From Centroscyllium fabricii (taxonomy: Eukaryota), in NCBI GenBank assembly GCA_051313645.2, contig JBNRSN020000026.1, positions 8,618,001 to 8,682,000 of the forward strand: 64,000 nt of DNA, in the 5' to 3' direction. The notes below the pieces were generated by a model that was given only the letters and a program-made list of their open reading frames with translations, was not told the origin of the DNA and ran no database searches. Below are positions 4,014-64,000 of this stretch, in pieces. The position numbers and the translations under genes are program-made. Positions within the stretch are counted from its first letter, which is position 1. The number at the start of each line of letters is the position of its first letter.

Positions 4014-4259
4014 TGTGGTGATATTGAAACTTCCAGCAGAAAGTCTAATGATCTCTGCATATGTATTTCCTGTGACATCATTTCCTTTTTACATGTCACT
4101 TCCTGTATATATGTCACTTCCTGTCTAGTGGTATAAGTTCTGCTGCTATCCAGTCTGGGATGATGCTTCCCCTGTAAGCATGTGAAACTCTAACTCTGTA
4201 AATAGTTGATTAAAGCTTTGCTTAGAGTTATTGATGTGTAGGTCTCTTTTGTCACATCA
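4014..4259 (+). mobile_element. Solo LTR related to the Gypsy element at 32628-45653
   Basis: TG...CA ends, 5-bp TSD GCCAC (4009-4013, 4260-4264); reverse-complement similarity to LTRs 32628-32872 and 45407-45653. Confidence 0.92.
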
Positions 4260-33145: not shown

Positions 33146-35443
33146 CTAGTCGATGGCCCATTGGCATGTGGCACAGGGAGGATCATGGCTCCGCGTACGA
33201 GCCCCTATGGGCTCCGTGTCGGTTGAGGATTGATCAGCATCCTGGAATGAGGTACCAGGCGAGTCGAAGCTCCGAGTGCGGGATCCTACCGGCTCAAAGG
33301 TCATTGGTGCCTGATCAGGGTCCTGAAGAGTGGTACCCAGTGGTTCTCTGGAGGTTCCCGGTAGGGTATTATCCCTAGATGACCCTCTAGGTCCTGATGG
33401 GCAGGGTGCCAGGTCCCGCAACGATACTGTAGACTCTCGTCCGTCAGGGTGTCGTATGTGAGCGTAGCTGGGGTTGACCTCCGTTAGTTCTACCTCGTCC
33501 ACAAGAGGGTCATGCTTGGAGGTTCGGACATATCTTCGGAGCAATACAGGCCCTGGAGTGGTCAGCCATGAAGGGAGTGAAGCTCCATACGATGAGCGAC
33601 GCTGGAAACTGAAGAACCGTTCATGAGGCGTCGTGTTCGTGGCTGTGGAAAGCAAGGACCGTATGGAGTGCAATGCATCTGGTAACACCATCTCCCATTG
33701 CTGGTTGGGTAGACCCTGGGATTTGAGGGCAAGGCGTACCGAGTTCCATATGATGCCATTATACCTTTCTACCTGGCCGTTACCGATGGGGTGGTATGGT
33801 GTTGTTTTGCTTGTCGCGATACCTCTTTCCGAGAGGTAGTCCTTAAGTTCAGTGGACATGAAAGATGGACCCCGATCTGAATGGATGTAAGCTGGCATGC
33901 CACAGAGCGCGAATACCTGCTCGTGACAATTGATTACCGTGGAAGACAGCATATTAGAGCAGGGGAAGGCGAATGGGAAACGTGAATATTCGTCGACCAT
34001 TGTAAGCAGATATACGTGACGAGGGTACTGGGCCTTTAAAATCAATGCTCAGTCGTTGCATTGGTTGTGTCGCATGTATAAGTAAACCATCCGGGGGCCG
34101 GAAAAAGTGAGGTTTTAGCTCAGCACAGGTTCTGCATTCTGAACACATTTTCTTGATGGCTCCGGTTGAGAATGGGAGATTTTGTGACCTTACAAAATGT
34201 AAAATACGTGTCACACCAGGATGACATAATCCACCATGAATATCTGCGAGAGTGGAGGGTGATGTAGCAGCGCAGAATGCTCGAGTAAGAGTGTCCGGGG
34301 CCACATTATCTTTACCAGGGCGATAGTGAATAGTATAGCCAAAAGAGGCCAATTCCATCCTCCACAGTTGTATTTTATTATTCTTGACTTTGGTTCTTTT
34401 CCGGTTGTCCAGCATGAACGCGACTGATCGCTGGTCCGTTATCACCATGAAGTGTCGGCGAACTAAAAAATGGTTCCATTTTCGTACAGCCTCAATGATG
34501 GCCGTGGCTTCTTTTTCCACCGGTGGATAGTGCACTTCGGCACCCTGTAGGGTCCTAGACATGAAAGCTACAGGGCGACCTTCCTGATTGAGGGTAGCTG
34601 AGATCGCCACCTCTGAAGCGTCGCATTCAACCACGAATGGGAGGTTCTCATCGATGGAGTGGAGGGTTGCTTTCTTCAAATGCTGTTTAAGAGTAGTAAA
34701 GGCTGTAATAGCCGTTGTTCCTAATGGAAATGTCATGGCATTCAACAAAGGTTGAATTTTGTCAGAAAAATCAGGAATCCACTTCGCATAGCAGGCAAAT
34801 GGGCCGAGGGCCCGACGCAGAGAAGCAAGATTGTTAGGTGGAGGAAGCTCCTGGAGTGGGCGAAGTCTTTCCAGATCAGGCTTGATGATGCCGTTACCCA
34901 CACAGTAGCCGAGAATGTTAATGGTTGGCTGTGATTCCACGGATTTGGTTTCATTTAAGGTCAGGTTGCGACGATAAAGTGCATCCCGAAATCTTCGAAG
35001 GTTCTCGTCATGTTCTTGCTGGTCATGGCCAGCAACTGTAATGTTGTCGAGATAAGGGAAAGTGTCCCTCAAGTCTTCTTGCTTCACCAAGCCATCCATG
35101 GCTCGTTGAAAGACGGCTACTCCGTTGGTGACTCCGAATGGGAGACGGCAAAATTGATACAATCGTCCATTAGCCTCAAAGGCTGTATATTTTTTATCCG
35201 AGGCCCGTAGGGGTACCTGATAAGCACTCTGCAGATCATAAGTTGAAAATACTGAATATTCAGCCAGTTATTCACCATGTCATCGATACGTGGCAGTGGG
35301 TAAGCATCCAAATCCATATATTGATTAACGGTCTGAGATTAATCAATACATAGGCGTTTCTTCTGAGATTTCAAGGAGTTTTTAACAATGACGATCTGAG
35401 CCCGCCAAGGCGATGAACAAGGTTCAATGATGTCCTCCGCCAG
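33146..35443 (-). pseudogene. Gypsy pol remnant (RT, RNase H, integrase)
   Basis: SPWRAQ, DAYPLPRIDD, LPFGVTN, YLDN, CDAS, EKEA, H-H-C-C zinc motif, SIDFKGP, HSDRG, NGQVER; frameshifts. Confidence 0.93.
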
Positions 35444-37664
35444 GATCAACTGGGAGAAATGTTCCGGACTCCTGGTGGGCCAGTAGCAGGTGGACTCCCT
35501 GCCGGAAGAGTTCAGGCCCTTTGCCTGGAGCACCACGCACCTCCTCTACTTGGGAGTCTACCTTAGCCCCGCCGAGGACGCCTGGCCGGCGAACTGGCAA
35601 GAGCTGGAGGCCAAAGTCTCCGCTCGCCTAGGACGCTGGACAGGACTGCTCCGAGTGCTGTCCTACAGGGGTCGAGCGCTGGTCATAAACCAGCTGGTGG
35701 CCATGTTGTGGTCACTTTGATCCCGCCCCCTGCGTTTGTCGCAAAGATGCATTAGAGGCTCATCGACTTCTTCTGGGGCAAAAGGAAGCACTGGGTCTCT
35801 GCCGCGGTTCTGAGTCTCTCGCTTAGGGAGGGCGGTCAGGCGCTGGTGTGCCTTCGCACCCAGGCAGCGACTTTCCGTCTACAGGCCCTGCAGAGATACC
35901 TGAACGATGAGAATCCTCCTCGATGGTGTGCGTTGGCGACGTATTTCTTCCGCCAGCTGCATGGCCTCAACTACGACACGCAGCTCCTGTTTGTGCAATT
36001 AGGCCGTACGCGAGCCTACCTGCGGGAGCTGCCTGTCTTCTACCAGGAACTACTGTGGGTTTGGAACAGTGTCACCTCCAGGCGGAGTTCTCCCCCGTCA
36101 GGAGCGGCGGCCCTCCTTCGGGAGCCGCTGCTCAGGAATCCGCACCTCCGCGATCCCTGGCGTGGGCGGCTGGCGGAGGGTAGGGCTGTGGCTGGCAAGG
36201 TGACCAGGGTCGGGGACCTGCTCGATGGCGGAGGAACGGGCTGGATGGCGCCGGAAGAATTGGCGCATCGCCTCTCCTGGACCAGTATCCTGCGCGCATC
36301 CGAGTCCATCGTGATACTGAAAGCAGCACTGGGCCCCGACTCCACTAGGTGTATCGAGGAGGCTCAGGCACGTGGGGAGATCCCGTCCGAAGTGACCGCC
36401 GTTCGGACGGAATTACTCATTGGCGCAAAGCCCCGAAACCCCTCTCGGGAACCGGCGCCTCACAACCTGAGCCGCCTCGGAGAAAAGCCCTCCGTGCCTT
36501 TTAGTTCTGCGCGGAGGGGTTTCCTGTACGGGCTGCTCCTGCACACTTTCTACTATGCCATCTTCGCCTGCCGTCCGGACACGCCCTGGCGTGCCATCTT
36601 GTCATCCGGCGGAGGCGGAGGTCCCCAATGGGGTGCCCTCTACGCGTGTGTCCTCCCTTTATTTATTACGGACTTGGCGTGGAGGGTGTTGCACGGAGCA
36701 GTCCCGTGCAATAACTTATTAAGCAGGTTCACGGGTTCCCAGGCTGAGTGCCGTTTTTGCAGCCTGGAGGAGACCGGGTACCACATCTACAGTGAGTGTG
36801 AAAGGTTGCACCCCCTGTTTCATTATTTGAAGGGGCTGCTCCTCAACTTTTGGCTGCACTTCAGCCCCACGCTCCTGATCTACGGCCACCCGGTGCGGAG
36901 GGGAGAGGGCAGGTCGGAGGACCTCCTCGTGGGACTGCTTCTGGGCCTGGCCAAGGTGGCCATTAACAGGTCCAGGCAGAGGGCAGTTGAGGGGGTGGTT
37001 CGGCCAGATTGCCTGCCTCTCTGCCGCGGCTATGTTCGCGCCCGGGTGGCCCTGGAGATGGAGCACGCGGCGTCCGCTGGCACGCTCGAAGTCTTTCGGG
37101 ACCGGTGGGCGCCGCGGGGATTGGAGTGCATCGTCACCCCGGCCGGGGTGATCTTGGTTTAATTTGATTATGTTAATTAAGTGTTTTTGAGCTTCCTTTC
37201 AGTCTGCTTGTCCAGGAGAGTGGGAGGATCCGCTCGGCGACGCGGAGGGCCCGGCGGATGGAGTGGAATGTCAATCGGAGACTGCCGGATCTGCACCAGC
37301 CGTTCGCTGGGAGTGCCAACCCTCGTCTGTGTGTTTTCCCGGAGACCCGCTGTCCGGATGGGCGGGCAACGAAGACCAGGAAACTTGGCAAGTTTGGAAC
37401 CCTGCCTGTGGCCATGAGGACTTGTGGTCGTGACCCCTGCCTTGTGGGCATGAGGGCTTGTGACTTTTACCCCTGCCTTGTGGGCATAAGGACTTGAGAC
37501 TTTGACCTCTGCCTCGTAGGCAGGAGGGCTTGAAACTTTGACCCCTACCTTGTGGGCATTGGGGCTTGGGAGTTTGCCGCGGCTCAAGCGCGGTAATGTG
37601 GGGGTTTTATTTTCCTTTGTAAATGTTGTAAATAATGGTGTTTTTCTAATTGGTTTTAAATAAA
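35433..37664 (+). mobile_element. L1/Tx1-clade retrotransposon copy A, 5'-truncated
   Basis: Colinear with 42563-44795; ORF 35846-37162 contains CRFC...H....C. Confidence 0.92.
37410..37575 (+). repeat. ~36-bp tandem repeat (about 4-5 units) in the Tx1 3' UTR; paralog at ~44540-44705
   Basis: Unit approximately gacccctgccttgtgggcatgagggcttgtgacttt. Confidence 0.85.
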
Positions 37665-37990
37665 AGGGTTCTGGGCAACTGATAGGAGGTTGTGCCTTTG
37701 TGGAGTGGAGAAGGGAGAGGAGAGAAGTCTGTGTTTGCTGCAGCAGTGAGCCTTTGGAGTGCCAGAGGAGAGACCGGGAGTACAGAAGCTCTCTCTCTCT
37801 CTTTCTCTCTCTGCCTGTCTCTTAAAGAGGCACATCATAGACTGTATTAATTAAGTGTCCATTGAGCAGAGGGGAGAAGGGCCCTCTCCCATTTACCATC
37901 AACAGGGAGTGCCTTCGAATTTAACAAGCTCCCTCTGCTCCAGGGAAAGTAAAACCCACAGAGGCCGTTTCCATCAGCAGGCCTGTGACT

Positions 37991-38022
<32 letters not shown>

Positions 38023-38057
38023 CGTGGCCCTGTACAAAAAGCACCCCCCCCCTCACG

Positions 38058-40106
38058 ACGGCGAGTTCTTCATCAACGGTGGCGGGGTCAGCGAGGCCAT
38101 ATGCGAGTGTGGCAGCTACGGCCACAGCTCCTCCCGCTGGTTTTGCTGCCCCGTCACCGTTTCGTCTTATAACAAGGAAGCACGGGGTTAAGAGTTATGC
38201 TCACCCCAGTATGACCATTGAGGCGTGCGTAAAGGCCATGGCTGAGGTGGTCGGCCCTTCAGCCATCGTCGCCGCCTCAAAAATGCACGGGAAGGCTGTG
38301 TTCTTCCTGCGGTCAGAGCGGGCGGTCCACCTGGCTATAACCAAGGGGCTCACCGTGGGCGGGACCTTCTTGCCGGTGGATCCTCTTGGGGCCACCGCGC
38401 AGAGGATTGTATTGTCCAATGTCCCGCCCTTTGTTCCGGTTGGGCTCCTCCTCCCCGACTTACGTCAACTGGGGGAGGTAAGGTCGGGGATCGTGCCCAT
38501 TCCGCTCGGCTGCAGGGAGGCCAGCCTCCGGCACGTGCTCTCCTTCCGGCGCCAGCTCTTCCTTCAGGAGGAGTTCACCGAGGGTGCGTTTAGTGTGAGT
38601 CATGAGGGGACAACCTATCGGATATTTTGGAGCTCGGATGAAGTGCGGTGCCACGCCTGCAAAGAGGTGGGGCACATAAGAAAGAACTGCCCCGCCTCCA
38701 AGGCCGCTAAAACATCTCAGGCTGGCGCCGCCGCTCCTACCCCCGTTTCTGTCCGCGTGCCCACGACACCTGATGCGCGGTCGACGGCATAGGTCGACGC
38801 TGTCGCGGCCTCCGGCGGGGGTTGGGGGGGGAGGGGGAGCCTCCGAAAGGAAGGAAGGCACGGCGAAAGAGGAAACACCTTCGGGCGGCTCCCCTGGGCG
38901 AGCTGTCAGACATTGATGACTTCCCAGCCATCACGCCCGAGTATATCGCGGAGTTGCTTGCCGAAACTAGGAGTGAAGGGGGTCGTGTGTCCGGACCCTC
39001 GACCGCAACCGCCGAGGCGGACGAATCAAGGCCTGCGGTTGGGCCGGGGCTCGAGGGATCCGAGCAGCCTCCCATTCGGCAGGAGGGAACGGAGGGGGAG
39101 GCCTTGGAGATTATGGAGGTCTCAGGATCCTCCACACTGAAAAGGAGGCGTGACTCACTGGAGGATGAGGAGGAGGGCCGCGAGTGGCGGGGTCCCTCCT
39201 CGCGAGGGGTATCGTCGTCTGCTGTGGGTGTTGAGCCCCTCCCCACCATCGACGTCCGGCGGGAGTTGCCTGTCCCTCGGGAGGAAACGACAGAGGAGTC
39301 TGTCCGATCTGAGCCTCCCGGGGGCGGGGAAGGGGCCCCTCTCGCCGTGGGGGGCGCCGCGAAGATAGCCGCGGATACAACCACTAAAGTACCCACAGAA
39401 CTTAAGTCCATGTTGGGCGCCCTGGGGACTGGGGTGGGTGAGGCCATCGAGGCTGAGCCCGCGCAAAACAGTCAGGACTTCCCCCAGGAGCTGTTCGACA
39501 TGGTCAACATTCTCATTGAAACTTCCCAGTCTGCTGGGTAGGTGGCTGGTGGCGATGAGGGGGAAGGCCCCCCGACTCCGTCTCCGCGGGTGGTGGGGGA
39601 ACTGGGAATAATGTTCTCCCCGTGTTCCCCGTGTGCCACAGTGCCTGGGTCGGAGGGGGGCCCCGGGCCGCCGCTGCCTGATGCGGCATCTCCGGAGGAG
39701 CCCGGTGAGGAATCCTCTGCCGCCGATCCTGGGGGTGGGACCGGGACAGAGGGGGGGCCGGCCGATGGCGACCTCCCGGAGGAGGACGGGGACCCGGCGG
39801 AGGGCACGGAGAGCGAGTCGGACTCCGACGCCGGTGAGGCAGTGGATGTCCTTGTGCCCCCCTCTGGGTCCCCCCTCGTCCCCGCTTTGGATCTCCGGGA
39901 ATTTGTGGCCACGTGCCAGGGTCTGGCTGGCCCTCGAAAGGTGGCTGGATCTGGCGCTGCTCATTAATTCCGTCTGCGCCGTCGCCAAAACAGTGGGCGC
40001 GGATGAGGGCGGGAGCCCGGCCGAGCGGCGTCGGATCCAGAAGTTCCTCACTGGGCTGGAAAGGGAGTGGCAGGCGACTAGCGACCGTGCTCCCTCCTCC
40101 CGTTAG
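38058..40106 (+). pseudogene. Tx1 ORF1 remnant (CCHC knuckle, acidic low-complexity region)
   Basis: IVAASKMHGKAVFFL, LSNVPPFV, CHACKEVGHIRKNC; in-frame ACG at 38058 may be a mutated ATG; internal stops. Confidence 0.85.
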
Positions 40107-40137
40107 GTTTAGGTAGAGGTTAGACTGTGCTCTTGTC

Positions 40138-43100
40138 ATGAAGACAACCATAGCCAGCCTCAACATCAATGGCAGCAGCGATGCGCGCCGTAGATTTAAC
40201 ATCTTCTCGGTCCTTCGGGACGGGAAGCATGCGGCGTGCTTCCTGCAAGAAACCTACACCGTTCCGGAGGACGAGGCCATGTGGCTCCTGGAGTGGCAAG
40301 GAGGGGTGAGCATGAGTCACCTGTGGAAACCGTTATATATGTACTCTTTTACCACCTCAATATTGTTGCCAATATTGTATTGCATGTATAGCGGCCGGGT
40401 GCATAATACACTGCCTTGTATTGCGACACTGTCGCGGGGACAGGTCAGCCACACCTCTAACTCCTCCCCTCAGGTGAGTGCCTTATAGGTGGGGACCGAC
40501 CTGCCCCCATTCATTCTGTACCTGATGTTCGATCGGAGCGTAGCTCCTTTGTAAGCTAATAAAAGCCTCTAGTTAATGAAACTAAAGACGCGTAGTTACC
40601 TTAAGACTATTGACGATACGTCATCACCTCTCCAAAGTTTCCAGTGGGGTGGCCATTTTGCTGGCCCCGCATTTTCAGCCGGAGATCTTGAGGGTCAAGG
40701 AGCTCGTGCCGGGCCACTTGCTCCAGGTCACTGTACGCCTGTGGGGCGTGCCGCTCCATCTAGTGAACGTGTATGCCCCTCAGGCCGGTGCGCAGCAAGT
40801 GCGCTTCTTTGAAGAAGTGTCCGCTCTTCTGGGCTCCATCGACGTCGGCGAGTGCGTCATTCTCGGGGGGGATTTTAATTGCTCCCTCAAGGCGAGGGAC
40901 CGTTCGGGCCCCCCGCACTGCCGGGCGGCGATGGAGGAGTTGAGGGACCTGGTCGGGTCCCTCGACTTGGTGGACGTCTGGCGAAATCTCCATCCTGACT
41001 CCAGCGCCTTCACTCACGTGAGGTCTGGAGGAGGAGGGTCCAGAATCGACCGCCTCTATATTTCCCGGGCGTACGTCTCCTGCGTTCCGGCGGCTTCCAT
41101 GCGGCCGGTGCCATGCACGGACCACCACCTGGTGTGGGCGGAGCTCACTCCGTTGTGCGCACAGGGGGGGTCCGCGTACTGGCACTTTAACAACCTGCTG
41201 CTGGAGGACGTGCGGTTCGGGGATTCATTCCGTCGGTTCTGCGCCGACTGGAGGAGGAAGCAGGGGGGCTTCCCCTCCTTGAGTCTATGGTGGGACGTGG
41301 GCAAGGCTCATGTCCATCTCTTCTGTCAGGAGTATGCGAGGGGGTCGACCAAGAGGCGGGAGGCCCGGGTCGGGCGGTTAGAGAGGGAGGTGCTCGACCT
41401 GGAGTCCCGTCTCGGTCAGGCCGTCGACGACCCAGCCCTGCGGAAGGTGTACGAAGAGAAGGGTGCGCTGAAGGACCTGCAGCTCGTTGGGTCCCGAGGC
41501 GCCTATGTGAGGTCGCGGATCCGGTTCCTTCTTCTACTCGCTGGAAAAAAGACGGGGGGTCCGTAAGCAGCTCTTGGGGCTGCTGGCTGACGACGGATCC
41601 CTAGTCTCAGATCCGGAGGGGATCAGCACGGAGACCCGGGCCTATTACGGGGCTCTGTTCTCTGCGGATCCGTCCAGCGAGGTTGCGCGTAGAGTTTTGT
41701 GGGAGGACCTGCCAAAGGTCAGCCCGGAGGGCGCCGAGCAATTGGATGCTTGGCGGAGCTGACGGGCGCCCTCGGCCAGCTCTCGAGGGGAAAGTCCCCG
41801 GGGCTGGACGGGCTGACCGTGGAGTTCCACAGGGCGTTCTGGGACGTCTTGGGGGGCGACTATGCGCGGGTCCTGGAGGAAAGTCTGGCGACCGGGGAGA
41901 TGCCTCTCTCTTGGTGCAGGGCGGTCATCGTCCTGCTGCCTAAGAGGGGCGACCTCCGCCTACTGAAGAACTGGCGCCCGGTGTCCCTCCTCAGCACGGA
42001 CTACAACATTTTTGCAAGGGCTATGTCTGTCCGCCTTGGCACCGTGCTGGCCCACATGATCCATCCCGACCAGTCCTACACGGTCCCGGGCCGGACTATC
42101 CACGATAACATCCATCTGGTCTGGGACCTGGTCCACCATTCCCAGAGGGCTGGTCTGTCGGTCACCTTCCTTTCCCTGGATCAGGAGAAGGCGTTCGACA
42201 GGGTGGATCATGAGTATCTTTTCGGAACTCTGCGCGCATTCGGGTTCGGGACGCATTTCGTCGCCCGGATCCAACTTCTGTATGCCGCCGCGGAGTGTCT
42301 GATAAAGGTTAATGGGTCCTTGACGGCGCCCCTTTTCTTCGGGAGGGGGGTGCGTCAGGGATGCCCCATGTCCGGTCAGTTATATGCCGTCTGCGTGGAG
42401 CCTTTCCTGCGCCTCTTGCGGAAGAGGTTGACGGGACTGGCTCTGCAAGGGCCGGGCGTGGAGGTTGTCCTCTCGGCTTACGCCGATGACGTGCTCCTCA
42501 TGGTCACGGATCCCGTTGACCTGCGGAGGATGCGGGAATGCCAGCAGATTTACTCGGATGCATCCTCCACCAGGATCAACTGGGAGAAATGTTCCGGACT
42601 CCTGGTGGGCCAGTGGCAGGTGGACTCCCTGCCGGAGTAGTTCAGGCCCTTTTCCTGGAGCACCACGCACCTCCTCTACTTGGGAGTCTACCTTAGCCCC
42701 GCCGAGGACGCCTGGCCGGCAAACTGGCAAGAGCTGGAGGCCAAAGTCTCCGCTCGCCTAGGACGCTGAACAGGACTGCTCCGAGTGCTGTCCTACAGGG
42801 GTCGAAGCGCTGGTCATAAACCAGTACAGGTGGCCGCCATGTTGTGGTACCGGTTGGTCACTTTGATCCCGCCCCCTACGTTTGTCGCCAAGATGCATTA
42901 GAGGCTCATCGATTTCTTCTGGGGCAAAAGGAAGCACTGGGTCTCTGCCGCGGTTCTGAGTCTCTCACTTAGGGAGGGCGGTCAGGCGCTGGTGTGCCTT
43001 CGCACCCAGGCGGCGACTTTCCGTCTACAGGCCCTGCAGAGATACCTGAACGATGAGAATCCTCCTCGATGGTGTGCGTTGGCGACGTATTTCTTCCGCC

Positions 43101-44293
43101 AGCTGCACGGCCTCAACTACGACACGCAGCTCCTGTTTGTGCAATTAGGCCGTACGCGAGCCTACCTGCGGGAGCTGCCTGTCTTCTACCAGGAACTACT
43201 GTGGGTTTGGAACAGTGTCGCCTCCAGGCGGAGTTCTCCCCCGTCAGGAGCGGCGGCCCTCCTTCGGGAGCCGCTGCTCAGGAATCCGCACCTCCGCGAT
43301 CCCTGGTGTGGGCGGCTGGCGGAGGGTAGGGCTGTGGCTGGCAAGGTGACCAGGGTCGGGGACCTGCTCGATGGCGGAGGAGCGGGCTGGATGGCGCCGG
43401 AGGAATTGGCGCATCGCCTCTCCTGGACCAGTATCCTGCGCGCATCCGAGTCCATCGTGATACTGAAAGCAGCACTGGGCCCTGACTCCACTAGGTGTAT
43501 CGAGGAGGCTCAGGCACGTGGGGAGATCCCGTCCGAACTGACCCCCGTTCGGACGGAATTCCTCATTGGCGCAAAGCCCCGAAACCTCTCTCGGGAACCG
43601 GCGCCTCACAACCTGAGCCGTCTCGGGGAAATGCCCTCCGTGCCTTTTAGTTCTGCGTGGAGGGGTTTCCTGTACGGGCTGCTCCTGCACACTTTCTACT
43701 ATGCCATCTTCGCCTGCCATCCGGACACGCCCTGGTGTGCCATCTTGTCGTCTGGCGGAGGTCCCCAATGGGGTGCCCTCTACGCGGGTGTCCTCCCTTT
43801 ATTTATTGGGGACTTGGCGTGGAGGATGTTGCACGGAGCAGTCCCGTGCAATAAGTTATTAAGCTGGTTCACGGGTTCCCAGGCTGAGTGCTGTTTTTGC
43901 GGCCTGGAGGAGACCGTGTACCACATCTGCAGTGAGTGTGAAAGGTTGCACCCACTGTTTCATTATTTGAAGGGGCTGCTCCTCAACTTTTGGCTGCACT
44001 TCAGCCCCACGCTCCTGATCTACGGCCACCCGGTGCGGAGGGGAGAGGGCAGGTCGGAGGACCTCCTCGTGGGACTGCTTCTGGGCATGGCCATTAACAG
44101 GTCCAGGCAGAGGGCGGTCGAGGGGGTGGTTCGGCCCGATTGCCTGCCTCTCTTCTGCGGCTATGTTCGCGCCCGGGTGGCCCTGGAGCTGGAGCACGCG
44201 CCGTCCGCCGGCACGCTCAAAGTCTTTCGGGACCGGTGGGCGCCGCGGGAACGGGAGTGCATCGTCACCCCGGTCGGGGTGATCTTGGTTTAA
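40138..44293 (+). pseudogene. Tx1 ORF2 remnant (APE, RT, C-terminal zinc finger), interrupted by a solo LTR
   Basis: SLNING, FLQET, VNVYAP, GGDFN, SRIDR, TDH, KSPGLDG, SLDQEKAFD, GVRQGCPMS, AYADD, CCFC..H..C. Confidence 0.93.
40322..40623 (+). mobile_element. Solo LTR related to the LTR at 62993-63272
   Basis: TG...CA ends, TSD TCACC (40317-40321, 40624-40628), AATAAA at 40558; shares caggtcagccacacc and tgacgatacgtca with 62993-63272. Confidence 0.92.
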
Positions 44294-47200
44294 TTTGATT
44301 ATGTTAATGAAGTGTTTTTGAGCTTCCTTTCAGTCCGCTTGTCCAGGAGAGTGGGAGGATCCGCTCGGCGACGCGGAGGGCCCGGCGGATGGAGTGGAAT
44401 GTCAATCGGAGACTGCCGGATCTGCACCAGCCGTTCGCTGGGAGCGCCAACCCTCGTCTGTGTGTTTTCCCGGAGACCCGCTGTCCGGATGGGCAGGCGA
44501 CGAAGACCAGGAAGCTTGGCAAGTTTGGAACCCTGCCTGCGGCCATGAGGACTTGTGGTCGTGACCCCTGCCTTGTGGGCATGAGGGCTTGTGACTTTTA
44601 CCCCTGCCTTGTGGGCATAAGGACTTGAGACTTTGACCCCTGCCTCGTAGGCAGGAGGGCTTGAAACTTTGACCCCTACCTTGTGGGCATTGGGGCTTGG
44701 GAGTTTGCCGTGGCTCAAGCGCGGTAATGTGGGGGTTTTCTTTTCTTTTGTAAATGTTGTAAATAATGGTGTTTTTCTAATTGGTTTTAAATAAGAGAGT
44801 TCTGGGCAACTGATAAAGATCTGAGTTTCTTTTTGCTGGAGCAAGCCAGTTCGAAAGCTTTTTGCAACTCTAGGGCCTTACTCTCCAGTAGACGCTGGCG
44901 TATCAGTGGGGAGGAAATCCCGCTGATGAAGGCATCGCGGATCATTTCCTCACGGTAAAGCGCAGCCGAGGCTGCCTGAAAGTTACAGTTCGTACTGAGC
45001 CTGCGCAGTGTCTGCAGGAATTCACCGATAGATTCCTCCGGCCCTTGCCGGGCCGTGGCCAGTAAATGTCTAGCGTAAATCTCGTTGGGTGGCTTTGAAT
45101 ACAGTTCTTTAAGAGCTCGGATTGCTTCATTAAAGTTATCCCATCTGTCCAGATATTCATATACCTTAGGGGATACATAGTTTACCAGTAGCCGGAGTTT
45201 AGCAGTATCACTCGCATCACATTCTTCCAGAAAATTTTCGAAAGTATGGTACTAGTGCTTCCATACCTTTGCGGCTGATGGCGAGTTCGGATCCAGGTCA
45301 AGAATTCTGGGGTTGAAGAGGCTCTCCATGACGGGTGGTTCCCTGGGGTCCTCAGTTCCTTGTTGTCCGAAGGTTTCAAAATTTTGAGCGTAGTAGTTGA
45401 TTAAATTGATGTGACAAAAGCGACTTACACATCAATAACTTTAAGCAAAGCTTTAATCAACTATTTACAGAGTTAGAGTTTAACATGCGTACATAGGGAA
45501 GCATCATCTCAGACTGGATAGCAGCAGAATTTATTCCACTAGACAGGAAGTGACGTATATACAGGAAGTGACATGTATACAGGAAATGATGTCACTGGAA
45601 GTTCATATGCAGAGTTCATCAGACTTTCTGCCGGAAGTCTCAATATCATCACACTATTGTGTTAATCTCCTCTTTAACCAGCAATGCTAGCCCACCTCCT
45701 TTTTCTCTTTGCTTGTCCTTCCTGAATATTGAATACCCCTGGATGTTGAATTCGCAGCCTTGCTCACCCTGGAGCCATGTCTCCGTAATCCCAATTATAT
45801 CATATCCGTTTACATATATTTGCGCAGATATTTCATCCACCTTATTACGAATGCTCTTCGCGTTAAGACACAAAGCCTTCAGGGTTTTTTTTAACACTCT
45901 TAGTCCTTTTGGAATTATTATTTACTGTTTGATTTACACCCTTGATTTCTCTGCCTTCCACTTTTGCTTTTCTCCTTCCTGTCTTTTGTTTCTATCCTTG
46001 CTTGCCTTTCATCTGTCTCCCTGCACAGGCTCCCAATCCCCTGCCATTTTAGTTTAAACCCTCCCCAAAAGAGGAGAGGGAGAGATTATGAGCACGAGGT
46101 ATCAAATTATCAGATTTGATTCAATGTCATGATCCTTTGGATGCGACCCCTTACAATTTATCAGAAAAGGCAGCCAATTCTCTTATTGTAGGATAACTTG
46201 CTTCTTTTGTCACTCACTCCACAACTTGCACCCATTGTTGTCACAAATGTATCTAAATTGTCCCACTGCCACTGGCTCCTTGATACTCAGTTACATCCAA
46301 TTCTCAGCTTTCTGTCACATTTTAATGTTATAAAAAATCTTAAGTGCAACATTTTTCCAGTAGATGTGGCGAATTGAGACTGAGCAGTTTCAAATATATC
46401 TCTAATTCATCGTTGACAACCTAATCACATAGCTGAGAACAAAGAATATCCACCTCAAATGCTATACGATCTAGACACAACCGAATGGCACATGTTTGAT
46501 AACGTCAACTTCCCTTTGAAACTCACTATCTCAAATAACTTATTTCATTGGCACACGCAACACTACACGCCCCACGTGTAGAACAAAGGACGCTCTCTGT
46601 TCCTCAGCGCAGTAAGCTTATCCCCATGTAACAAGCAGCAAAAATAACAAAAGCAGTAAGTGTATTTCTACCATACCAATTAATACCCTGCACTTGTATA
46701 AACTGATGAGATTCAGGTTTTGACATTGGATGGCTAACTTAGTTTAGCATACTGAAATCAGCCTGCGTCTTTGCTGTGTTCTGTTGCAATTTCAATTTAA
46801 GTTAAATCACATTTTACAGTAACTTTCATTCCCTTATGTAGAAATTTCAAATCAGTTACAATGTAGCAGTAACACATGCCACACGAAAAATAGGTTTTCA
46901 AATGGTTGAAGAGGTTATCATTTACAGAAAATTACATTCAAGAATGGCTTAGGCTCAAGCAACTTTCTCATTTTGGCCCCCAATTTGTCCCATATTCTTC
47001 TGATTTATTACTTTTTGTTCAGTAGGAAGGTGAGTAAAATTAATTTTCAATTAATATATTTCAGATCAGGATTATGTTCTGTTACAAGTAAATCTATGAA
47101 TTGAAGTGTTTTACAATGTTTAGTTGAACGTGGCAACTGTTAAATGGGAGAGGGGATGCTATGGTGTTGAGTGCTGATTCATTTTAGTCTCCCAAGTACA

Positions 47201-49179: not shown

Positions 49180-51739
49180 ACACCATTAAAAAGATAATGG
49201 GCCGGATTTTCCGATGGCCCCGGGGCCCAACGCGTGACGGTAGAGATATCCCATGTGTCGAGTGACGCTGGAACTTGAAGAACCGCCCATGAGGCGTGAC
49301 ATTAAAAGATGTGGAAAGAAGAGATCGAATAGAGTGTAACACGTCGGGGAGCACCGTTTCCCATTGCTGGTCTGGTTTATTGCGTGACCTCAGTGCCAGA
49401 CGGACAGTGTGCCAGATGATGGCGTTGTACCTTTCAACCTGCCTGTTACCGATTAGGTGATATGGTGTCGTTTTACTCGTGGCGATTCCCCGTTGGGAGA
49501 GATAACGTTTAAATTCGCTCGACAGGAAGGAGGACCCCGATCAGAGTGGATGAAATTGGCCGTACCGCAAAGGGAAAAGATTTGATCGAGGCATTTGATC
49601 ACAGTCGACGTGGCCATCTATAGCACGTTGAAAGACGGCCACCCCATTGGTGACCCCAAACGGAAGGCGACGAAACTGGTAAAGCCGACCACTGGCTTCA
49701 AAGGCCGTATATATATTGTATACGCTCTTTAGATCGAATGTTGAAAATACCTTGTATTTGGCAAGGTTATTGACCATGTCGTCGATGCGTGGTAGTGGGT
49801 AGGCATCCAGATCGGTATATTGATTAATAGTCTGTGCGTAATCAATACACAGACATTTCTTATGTTGTTTTAAGGGGTTTTTCACAACGACGACTTGAGC
49901 CCGCCAGGGAGATGAACACGGTTCAATGATCCCGTCATCCAGAAGACAAGAGATTTCTGCCTCAGAAAATGGCCGCTCATCTTGGCTGAAACGCCGAGAT
50001 TTGGTGGCTATGGGTTTATAATGCGGGGAAGAGATTGGCAAACAAGGAGGGCTCGCCGAGCAAGGCCGCCGAAAGCACACAAAACAGCACCTTAGAAGCA
50101 GTAAGCTCCGGCTTTAACCCTCCGAACTCAAAAGTGAGTCTTTTGTGCTGCTTCTGGAAATCCTGTCCCAGAAGCACATCACTGCATAAGTTGTCGAGTA
50201 CTCCAAGCCGGGTGGAGAACTACGTATGGCCACTGAGGATGAGGTCGACAAGACAGCAGCCAGTAGAATTGGTGGTCAGAGTCGTCCGAGCCATCGCAAT
50301 CTCCCTGTCCGAGGGATAAATATGCAGTTTTAACCTGCTGACAGCCCGCTTACTAATAAAGCTGTCAGAGCTGCAGGAGTCAATTAGCGCGCTCAGAGTG
50401 TGTCCATTCGCTGAAATCTTTGTGGCTGCATGGGCTAACTTTGGGGAAAAACAGCTGTGATGGGAGGAGGGGCAATTTTATCCTCGGCAGCTGTAGCCTC
50501 AGCAATGGTTCTTGGGGGAGGAGCAGGTTCATAGTTAGCAGCTGCGAAGCTAACAGGAGCTCTTGATCAGTATACTTTAGAGGAGCGGCCTTTCTTGTTA
50601 GTAGAGGCTCTTGACTGGCATACCTTGGAAAAGTGTCCTTTCTTGCTGCAATGATTGCAGGTCGCATTCCGAGCCGGGCAAAATTTCCTGTAATGGAATG
50701 TACTTCCGCAAAAGAAACACTTCCTTTCCGATTGCCGGGAAGCTGCTAGGGCAGGGTCGTCATCAGTGAAGGCCTCTAGGGTCGGGTCATCGCCCGTTAG
50801 AGTAGAGTCATCATCAGCGAGGGCTTCCGCCCGAGACCTATCGAAGGACTCTTTAAAAGTGGCAGCCGCCGCCCGTGCACGCGGTGGGAGATAAGTGTCT
50901 GCATTTCTCTTGGCTAAGTCCAGAGAACATGCCTGGTCATAAGCAGCCCGCAAATCGAGGGTTATATTTTCCAGCAGGCGCTGCGTATAAAAGGAGATGC
51001 AATCCCATTCATAAAGGAATCACGGATTAGTTCCTCTTGATATTGCTCAGCTGTAACAGTTTTAAGGTTACAGTCCTTGCTGAGCCTACCAAGTTTCTAG
51101 AGGAATTCGTCGAGTGAGTCCACAGGCTGTTGCCGAGTTGTGGCTAGTAGATGCCGAGCAAAACTTTCATTTGGGGACTTGACATATCGCTGTTGTAGAA
51201 TTTGGACAGCAGCATCATAGTCTATACAGTCCTCAATATAATCATACACGAGGGGATACGTAGTTAATAAGCATTCGTAACTCATTAGAGGGATCCGCCT
51301 CACATTCTTCGAAAGTTGCTAAAGGTACGAAACCAATGCTTCCATACCTTTGCTGCCGCAGGTGCATTCAGATCCAGGTCGAGATGGGTGGGTCTAAGGA
51401 GTGTTCCCATGATGCATTCGTTTCTTATCCGAGTTCCCTTCTATGGTTCGAGTTGCAGCTGTATGTTGCGAATCACCCAAAGCGTAGAGACGATACCAAG
51501 TTGATTAAATTGATGTAATAAAGACTCACTAAGCACTTGGTTAAGCATAAAGCAAGGCTTTAATCGACTTGTAACAAAACAGAGAGGTCTAGTTAGCAGT
51601 CACTAGCTTCCTGTTTTCAGATTGTCTCTGGCCAAGTTGGGCCCACGCCCGAGTATTTATACTCCTTGAACGGTGCCCTCAGCTGGCCGTCCAGTAGTAC
51701 TTCCGGAGTTATTTCTTGCAGAAGATGAGATTTATGACA
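49180..51739 (-). mobile_element. Gypsy LTR retrotransposon 2 (Mag-like gag), internally deleted, 3' LTR missing
   Basis: 5' LTR 51511-51739, gag ATG 51410, double knuckle CFFCG...HYRKFCPARNATCNHCSKKGHFSKVC, protease-like LIDSCSS, RT LPFGVTN, integrase remnant. Confidence 0.9.
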
Positions 51740-54501: not shown

Positions 54502-55066
54502 CAGGTTGAGCACCGTTAATCCGGCACGGGCGGGACCAGGTCCGTGCCGGGAAAGTGAAAATCCCAAATGATTGAAGCTTCTGTGAGCGCATGCGCAGAC
54601 CATTCAAAATGGCCACTGCGAAAGGCCGGCGGCCATTTTGAGTGGTCTGCGCATGCGCTTATTGTTGCGGGAGGCCCGGCCCGCGATCGGCTCGGAGAGA
54701 CTCAGGGTAGCCTGGCCAGCGATCGGCTCTGAGAAGCCCGGCCCACGATCGGCTCGGAGAAGCGCTGCCCGTGATCGGCTCGGAGAAGCCTGGCCCACGA
54801 TCGGTTAGGAGAAGCCCAGCCCGCGATCGGCTCGGAGAAGCCCAGCCCGCGATCGGCTCGGAGACCCCCGGCCCGCAATCGGCTCGGGGAGACCATTGTG
54901 AATGATCTGCGCATGCGTTTGCCATTCGGCGACACATGCGCAGATCTTTTGCCGAAGCATCAATCACGGCGGCCATTTTGCGCATGCGCAGGGCAGTCGG
55001 GGCAATTTATGCCGGACGACTGAAGCTGCTGGCTTTCAGGTTAACGGATTACCGGTGCTCAACCCG
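54502..55066. mobile_element. Tc1/mariner MITE with an internal ~26-bp tandem array
   Basis: TIR caggttgagcaccg, TA TSD; about 8 units of gatcggctcggagaagcccagcccgc. Confidence 0.88.
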
Positions 55067-62992: not shown

Positions 62993-64000
62993 TGTGGTAA
63001 CCGTTATACCACTGTATCACCATGGCTAATGATGGGCTGTGCAGATGTTAGGCACAGCCCCGTTTACTGTGACTCTGTTGGGAGCCAGGTCAGCCACACC
63101 CCCGACTCCTCCCCCAGGTGAGGCCCCGATATAGGTGTGGCCTGACCGAGGCTCCATCCATTCCTGTACAGTAGTTCATCTGGAGAGTAGCTCCGTTCTT
63201 TAGTAATTAAAAGCCTTTAGTTTCGGTAACTACGCGTCGACTCTTTTAATTGAAGACCTTGACGATACGTCAATTTTAATTACTAAATTATTTTAAAATG
63301 GATAGCAGCAACGTTAAGCCTGACAAGCTGGACATCAGTCCCCAGGACCCTGCTGCTCCCGCTACCTTCGAACACTGGTTCGGTCTACTGGAGGCCTACA
63401 TGGAAGCCGCCGAGGCTACAACAGACAAGGACATGCTACATGTCCTGCGATCTAGGATCTCCAGCAGAGTATTCACCCTCGTCAGGAACGCCACAACCTA
63501 CGAAAGGACTGTACAAATTTTAAAGAAATGCTACGTGCGCCCGGTCCATTCGGTCTACGCCCCACATGTGCTGGCGACCAGACCTCAACTACCGGGTGAG
63601 TCAAATGAGGAGTTTGAGCAAGCGCTCCTGGCCCTGGTACGGGCCTGTGGCTGCAAAGGCACAACTATTGCAGAGGAGGAAGAACTCCTCGTTCGGGATG
63701 CTTATGTCACAGGACTGAGGTGTGTGGAAGCCCGCCAGCGGCTACTAGAGAGAGACAATTTATCCCTCGAGGAGGCAACCACATTAGCCAAATCGGTAGA
63801 GAGGGCCCGCAGAAAGTTACAGGCGTACAGCGGCACTAACCCGCAAGCCTACAACATATGGGCCGCGCCACAACAGGCCCAGGCCTGGGCGCCACAGGCC
63901 GAGACCCCCACGATGGCCGCGACGGCCACTGAAGACGTTAAAAGAAAGCGCTGTTACTTCTGCGGCCAGGGACAGCATCCTAGAGCGAAATGCCCAGCCA
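62993..64000 (+). mobile_element. Gypsy LTR retrotransposon 3: 5' LTR (62993-63272) and gag from 63298, runs off window
   Basis: TG...CA LTR related to solo LTR 40322; MDSSNVKPDKLDI...FEHWF, RDAYVTGL, RQRLLE, CYFCGQGQHPRAKCPA. Confidence 0.9.

Follow-up and report, generated by a model that had tools for sequence, protein, structure and literature searches.

The window analysed here is a stretch of 64,000 nucleotides from Centroscyllium fabricii (contig JBNRSN020000026.1), and it carries three related families of Gypsy retrotransposons, i.e. Gypsy 1, Gypsy 2 and a third family from 62993 on (Table 1). The sense strand of Gypsy 2 is the minus strand, on which the 5' LTR is followed by a one-base spacer, a partner arm and the predicted start of gag. 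The outer boundary of this LTR is fixed by 30 of 30 copies, which begin at the same TG and have flanks that all differ, and its inner end is set by copy L236, which has two LTRs. About 1.1 kb of the RT/RNase H region is deleted from the gag-pol remnant at 49612, and the 3' end and 3' LTR are absent. The Gypsy 2 copy in the window is dead, and taken singly it is unremarkable.

Several other insertions are found in the same window. Gypsy 1 is interrupted by non-LTR retrotransposon sequence, which contains a 2.25-kb direct repeat with units 7.1 kb apart that takes in Gypsy sequence, and copy L240 likewise has an internal duplication of that Gypsy stretch. Two solo LTRs and two tandem arrays are also present.

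Table 1. Features of the window and of the genomic and metagenome loci compared with it
Feature	Positions or loci	Strand	Remarks
5' LTR of Gypsy 2	51511..51739	minus	229 bp, TG...CA
TATA box of Gypsy 2	51654..51661	minus	at most 2 differences from the window copy in 80 of 84 aligned copies, several subfamilies
Conserved block of Gypsy 2	51623..51630	minus	31-38 nt after first base of TATA box
LTR arm, predicted 3' part of primer	51559..51571	minus	final six bases (51564-51559) are the putative poly(A) hexamer
Splice-donor-like GTRAGT in U5	51524..51529	minus	in at least 90% of 84 copies, third base G or A
Spacer between LTR end and partner arm	51510	minus	one base; common to all 12 families and the chromovirus control
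Partner arm at primer-binding-site position	51497..51509	minus	no initial TGG
gag-pol remnant of Gypsy 2	49235..51410	minus	broken by stops and frameshifts; predicted start 51410
Gypsy 1, same arrangement	45394..45463	minus	arm 45463-45452, partner 45405-45394
Gypsy 1 LTRs	45653-45407 and 32872-32628	minus	two LTRs, 5-bp target duplication
Gypsy 1 RT region	33957-35267	minus	RT motif YLDN
Non-LTR insertion in Gypsy 1	35433-44815		RT, endonuclease and zinc fingers
Third family, same arrangement	63199..63287	plus	arm 63199-63212, partner 63274-63287; LTR 62993-63272
Solo LTR resembling third family	40322-40623	plus	72% identity, 5-bp target duplication, inside the non-LTR insertion
Solo LTR of Gypsy 1 family	4014-4259	plus	5-bp target duplication
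Tandem arrays	54675-54908 and 37371-37612		units of 26 nt and 36 nt
Hairpins of the exceptional loci	L092:3313-3380 and L095:2594-2660		
Chromovirus loci	L198-L227, L228-L232		Tf1 geometry

The original prediction held that 13 bases just after the Gypsy 2 LTR pair with 13 bases inside it, with one mismatch. Both 13-mers lie where they were placed and read on the minus strand as quoted, and 12 of the 13 positions pair, the mismatch being 51566 against 51502. Pairing at 12 of 13 positions was reached anywhere by only 8 of 20,000 dinucleotide shuffles of the Gypsy 2 LTR, while the 12/12 pairing of Gypsy 1 was matched by 1 of 20,000 shuffles and the 14/14 pairing of the third family by none of 20,000. 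The mismatch had been suspected to have arisen after insertion, and the family bears this out: it sits at a CpG and is a case of CpG decay, as among the 30 top copies (the best 30 of 40 listed genomic matches, from 3,066 candidates in a genome of 7.2 Gb, with the window copy included) 15 have a Watson-Crick pair there, 7 have G-U and 8 have C-A. Full pairing with 13 Watson-Crick pairs is seen in 8 of these copies, 12 pairs in 17 and fewer in 5; the excess of mismatches in the family which had been named as evidence against the pairing was not observed. Differences at CpG sites are equally frequent within the arms (23 of 120) and outside them (115 of 600) in the 30 copies.

As for structure, the predicted fold of the Gypsy 2 leader is no better than that of shuffled sequences (z 0.22). 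The minimum-energy and centroid structures have 10 of the 13 arm pairs in common. In the minimum-energy model, the final two A of the hexamer are engaged in local pairs; the leader modelled is that of this decayed copy. Two details of the original prediction needed correction. The matched changes relative to Gypsy 1 are real at pairs 8 and 12, taking the hexamer end as pair 1, but position 13 is unpaired in Gypsy 1. The upstream box is present, but at 51661-51654, one base from where it was expected; its first base stands 90 nt from the arm, and the gap between box and arm is 82 nt.

The same arrangement recurs across a clade of related families. The hairpin was detected in 24 of 30, 29 of 30, 27 of 30 and 29 of 30 copies of four shark families, the fourth of which was found by a pattern search with 1,803 matches against 15 for the reversed control; the pattern searches and the shark-family hairpin finder were built around the hexamer, and the unbiased sample consists of 8 metagenome families only. 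This sample was drawn from 77 metagenome loci collected by protein similarity alone, 28 of which have an N-terminal gag match, and 12 of these 28 loci, spanning the 8 families, contain the hairpin. No partner arm was found upstream of gag at about 10 other metagenome loci that were inspected, probably because the LTR there is missing or decayed.

In all 12 families (4 shark, 8 metagenome) the partner begins one base past the terminal CA of the LTR. On inspection of the family sequences, none of the 12 has a primer site starting with TGG; a tRNA fragment as primer keeps a small probability. A TGG near 51499-51497 in the window copy was considered as a tRNA site and rejected, as it needs a G at pair 14, a base found in no more than about 21 of 84 copies. 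In 11 of the 12 families (7 of the 8 metagenome families) the poly(A) hexamer forms the end of the LTR arm, and one family adds one A. The arms are 12-15 nt long with a ragged distal edge, and the loop between arm and partner measures 24-61 nt.

In an alignment of 84 Gypsy 2 group copies, each of pairs 1-13 is Watson-Crick in 64 to 84 of them. The pairing has a sharp 3' edge, as the two positions beyond the hexamer pair in only 1 and 2 copies. Pair 12 is Watson-Crick in 84 of 84 (81 A-T, 3 C-G) and pair 13 is C-G in 43, T-A in 27, G-U in 2 and unpaired in 12, with neither pair fixed by any search pattern; copies in one family are not independent. Copying of the primer by the plus strand would yield such matched changes mechanically, and therefore the changes tie the arm to the primer site and do not measure the strength of selection.

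One exception is provided by the lineage of loci L092 and L095, where the arm stops 6 nt before the hexamer while pairing still starts one base past the CA; the LTR end is here fixed by both LTRs of L095. At these loci the final bases of the LTR could make a short stem beside the duplex.

The two main poly(A) signals are AAUAAA and AUUAAA, which differ at the second base of the hexamer. When this base was left free in the search pattern, 2,114 genomic matches were obtained, against 0 in the control. Counted by eye, the first 100 of these matches as listed comprise 73 with AAUAAA matched on both sides, 24 with AUUAAA matched and 3 unmatched, and a pattern with C or G at the second base on both sides gave 0 genomic matches. 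The A/T label at this base changes 6 times on the RT tree, and at least 4 of these changes are forced by supported branches. A further switch occurs within the third family, as the solo LTR at 40322-40623 has AAUAAA where that family has AUUAAA. This alternation between the two signals suggests that the hexamer of the arm behaves as a poly(A) signal. AATAAA is described elsewhere as a conserved LTR motif (PMC3601003). A search for poly(A)-tailed genomic retrocopies ending 0-30 nt past the hexamer context gave 0 matches. Among the loose ends listed for the contigs of two presumed RNA runs there is likewise no poly(A) end, which speaks neither for nor against the signal.

A GTRAGT motif lies about 25-30 nt past the hexamer in Gypsy 2 and about 24 nt past it in the U5 of Gypsy 1, and is not obvious in the metagenome families. 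It could be a U1 site regulating polyadenylation, or part of a GU-rich downstream poly(A) element.

The position of the arm in the transcript was judged from promoter geometry, with the chromoviruses of the same genome as control (collected by family search, chromodomain confirmed). In this control an arm is found one base past the CA in 20 of 30 loci, with a one-base spacer, and 19 of the 20 arms are 11 nt long; their poly(A) hexamer is separate from the arm. No such arm was found in a five-locus chromovirus group (L212, L218, L219, L222 and L223). TATA[AT]A lies 29-30 nt before the arm in 8 of the 20 chromoviruses. With variant boxes read by eye, the count rises to 17 of 20 arms, from 6 of 7 sequence groups, that have a TATA-like box 29-31 nt upstream. 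In contrast, none of 109 copies of the four shark families of the clade has TATA[AT]A at 24-36 nt before the arm; in three of these families, 76 of 82 copies have it 69-102 nt upstream. The distance from box to arm is about 70 nt in Gypsy 1, about 90 nt in Gypsy 2 and 89-102 nt in the fourth family, while the third shark family lacks a canonical TATA box and has a conserved TATAGG about 70 nt upstream.

The conserved block of the Gypsy 2 group keeps a distance of 32 or 33 nt from the box in every one of 80 copies, whereas the spacing from block to hexamer varies between 59 and 79 nt. Contrary cases were seen by eye: the metagenome family L087 has a good TATA box 31 nt before the arm and L069 a weak one at 30 nt, and Gypsy 1 also has a one-mismatch TATA variant 32 nt before its arm. 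The TATA counts of the metagenome families were likewise read by eye. From the block we infer an RNA start of Gypsy 2 near 51629, 58 nt before the arm. Since the box, unlike in the chromoviruses, is far upstream and the block stands at a fixed distance from it, the arm is probably internal to R, about 58 nt inside it. The claim that the pairing arm is internal to R thus gains indirect support from promoter geometry.

Taken together, these observations make self-priming of some form highly probable for the clade. Concerning its form, we lean with some reserve towards a primer that contains the internal arm, is freed by a cut after the hexamer and primes without a tRNA. The RNA would start about 58 nt upstream of the arm, and the arm would form a duplex with its partner at the primer site and serve as the paired 3' part of the primer. 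As the partner lies outside the LTR, this duplex would form locally only at the 5' end of the RNA. A cut directly after the hexamer, probably by the RNase H of the element by analogy with Tf1, would leave a capped primer about 70 nt long, of which 13 nt are paired; its freed 3' end, facing the spacer base, would start minus-strand DNA. The minus strand would copy 49 nt and then jump to the 3' end, with the first strand transfer using only the R bases between the hexamer and the poly(A) site. An RNase H domain is found in Gypsy 1 and in full-length relatives. Two bases separate the polypurine tract from the LTR, and together with the one-base spacer they fit retrovirus-like cDNA ends.

If the arm is the primer, a processing step just after AUUAAA is required, as originally proposed, but such a step is no distinction from Tf1, whose RNA is also cut at the end of its arm. 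Tf1 RNase H is described to cut right after the 11-nt arm, so that the first 11 bases become the primer (PMC7175516), and it is this cleavage at the arm's 3' edge that generates the Tf1 primer (PMC7175516, PMC4600332). What would truly distinguish the element from Tf1 is a long 5' leader that stays unpaired and a duplex that overlaps the poly(A) signal. Because the hexamer is itself the putative poly(A) signal, the duplex has a second possible job, in which it would hide the 5' poly(A) signal and leave the 3' copy of the signal free. The pairing of L092/L095, which stops short of the hexamer, suggests that priming is primary and masking secondary.

The sequence evidence fits equally a course in which the arm acts from the 3' R, or from a short RNA that receives its poly(A) tail early in the 5' LTR, and in which it is shortened to the hexamer by trimming or cutting. 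Self-priming from the 3' end or in trans would account for the exact end of the arm at the hexamer in 11 of 12 families, and would keep about 58 nt of upstream R for strand transfer. We regard it as unlikely, because the 5' arm lies only 24-61 nt from the partner and would be expected to pair first during transcription, because L092/L095 uncouple arm and hexamer, and because a mosaic test for the strand-transfer point gave no clear informative recombinant among 84 copies; to our knowledge, such priming has no precedent among LTR elements. It is likewise doubtful that 3'-end processing and priming form one coupled switch, in which an RNA ended at the hexamer docks on the primer site. The docking RNA would be the trimmed 3' end of the genome or a short RNA terminated early, within the 5' LTR, and if such a switch were true, the choice of poly(A) site would set when reverse transcription can start, across an animal Gypsy clade.

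Ordinary Tf1-type self-priming, in which transcription begins at the arm, was named in the original prediction as the competing outcome; its promoter would have no TATA box or be of another kind. The box of L087 and the weak boxes of Gypsy 1 and L069 speak for it, but we consider it distinctly unlikely given the lack of a box at 24-36 nt in all 109 shark copies against 8 of 20 chromoviruses (17 of 20 with variants, by eye) and the longer arms with their ragged edge against 11 nt in 19 of 20 arms of the control; in addition, a start at the arm would put the hexamer within about 13 nt of the cap. Very unlikely, in our estimate, is a duplex that only hides the 5' poly(A) signal while the primer is a tRNA fragment, a host RNA or something else. 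LTR elements must suppress the 5' signal (PMC3694450) and the whole hexamer is covered by the arm in 11 of 12 families, but masking alone leaves the fixed start one base past the CA and the sharp edge unexplained, L092/L095 pair without covering the hexamer, and a TGG-type site is not conserved. A chance or relic pairing without function can practically be dismissed. In its favour are the A/T-rich arms, a predicted leader fold no more stable than that of shuffles, and the dead state of the window copy, but the shuffles rarely or never reproduce the pairing in any of the three families of the window, the pattern search far exceeded its reversed control, and 12 families with differing arm sequences pair at the same position. 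At the family level, judged from the aligned copies, chance pairing is refuted by the matched changes.

The assignment of the clade was examined with proteins. Gypsy 1 and its full-length relatives have the order protease-RT-RNase H-integrase, LTRs with TG...CA, a polypurine tract and 5-bp duplications, as expected of Ty3/Gypsy elements, and homologs from crustaceans, cnidarians, tunicates, sharks and rays have a single frame of about 1,200 aa and no chromodomain. No chromodomain was found in Gypsy 1, L234, P0005, P0044 or the precomputed domains of two lists of 120 homologs, whereas it was found in 3 of 3 control chromovirus elements. In an RT-RNase H tree of 36 rows, picked from loci with usable coverage and with the chromoviruses of this genome as the only outgroup, the clade forms one branch (100/100) apart from the four chromovirus rows, and RT-RNase H identity between the two groups is about 30-33%. 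Membership in the Tf1/sushi chromoviruses was therefore rejected, with the chromodomain absent and the RT on a separate branch. A search of viral contigs gave no relative. The RT motif YLDN of Gypsy 1 also occurs in its homologs, and among 189 stored proteins 116 have xxDN, 30 have xxDD and 43 were not parsed.

The element has a primer site complementary to its own LTR and lacks a tRNA site, as in Tf1, and appears to work like Tf1 self-priming yet fails chromovirus membership. Self-priming has been demonstrated for Tf1. Beyond it, mainly chromovirus relatives and a few plant lineages are inferred to prime in this way, among them Tj1, sushi, Tcn1 and plant TAR elements (PMC7175516, PMC4600332, PMC6317226, PMC2864245). 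If our preferred reading is true, a distant and widespread animal clade has a differently built self-primer, which means at least one additional origin or redesign of self-priming. Two problems of LTR elements, the supply of a primer and the silencing of the upstream poly(A) signal, would then be solved by a single 13-bp duplex. Both self-primer designs coexist in many copies within this genome, which makes a direct comparison possible.

Among named clades, Cigr-1 (founder from Ciona intestinalis; also in molluscs and annelids) is a candidate for our clade, whose single gag-pol frame of about 1,200 aa fits the size of that of Cigr-1. No named Ciona or Cigr-1 protein is among the homologs listed. 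The passages that name the Cigr clades do not discuss the primer (PMC6238403, PMC8556966, PMC3670739). The arrangement was not found described in the parts of the literature covered, and the element tables of PMC6238403 and PMC8556966, the Cigr-1 founder paper and Repbase may note it.

Compared with known self-priming systems, the clade shares with Tf1/Tf2 of Schizosaccharomyces pombe, Tj1 and the Tf1/sushi chromoviruses a primer site complementary to its own LTR and the absence of a tRNA site, and self-priming is likewise predicted for the plant Tcn1 (gypsy) and TAR (copia) lineages. The one-base spacer after the CA is common to the clade and the chromoviruses of its own genome. Unlike the Tf1/sushi group, the clade has no chromodomain, and its arm is 12-15 nt instead of 11 nt. 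The loop is 24-61 nt, against about 150-780 nt in the Tf1/sushi group; the arm ends in the putative poly(A) hexamer, which stands apart from the arm in that group; and the TATA box lies 69-102 nt upstream, against 29-31 nt in chromoviruses. In HIV-1 and foamy viruses the poly(A) signal of the 5' LTR is reported to be suppressed by U1 snRNP and RNA structure (PMC3694450). These viruses share with the clade the problem of two identical signals, but the candidate masking strand of the clade is the primer site, outside the LTR.
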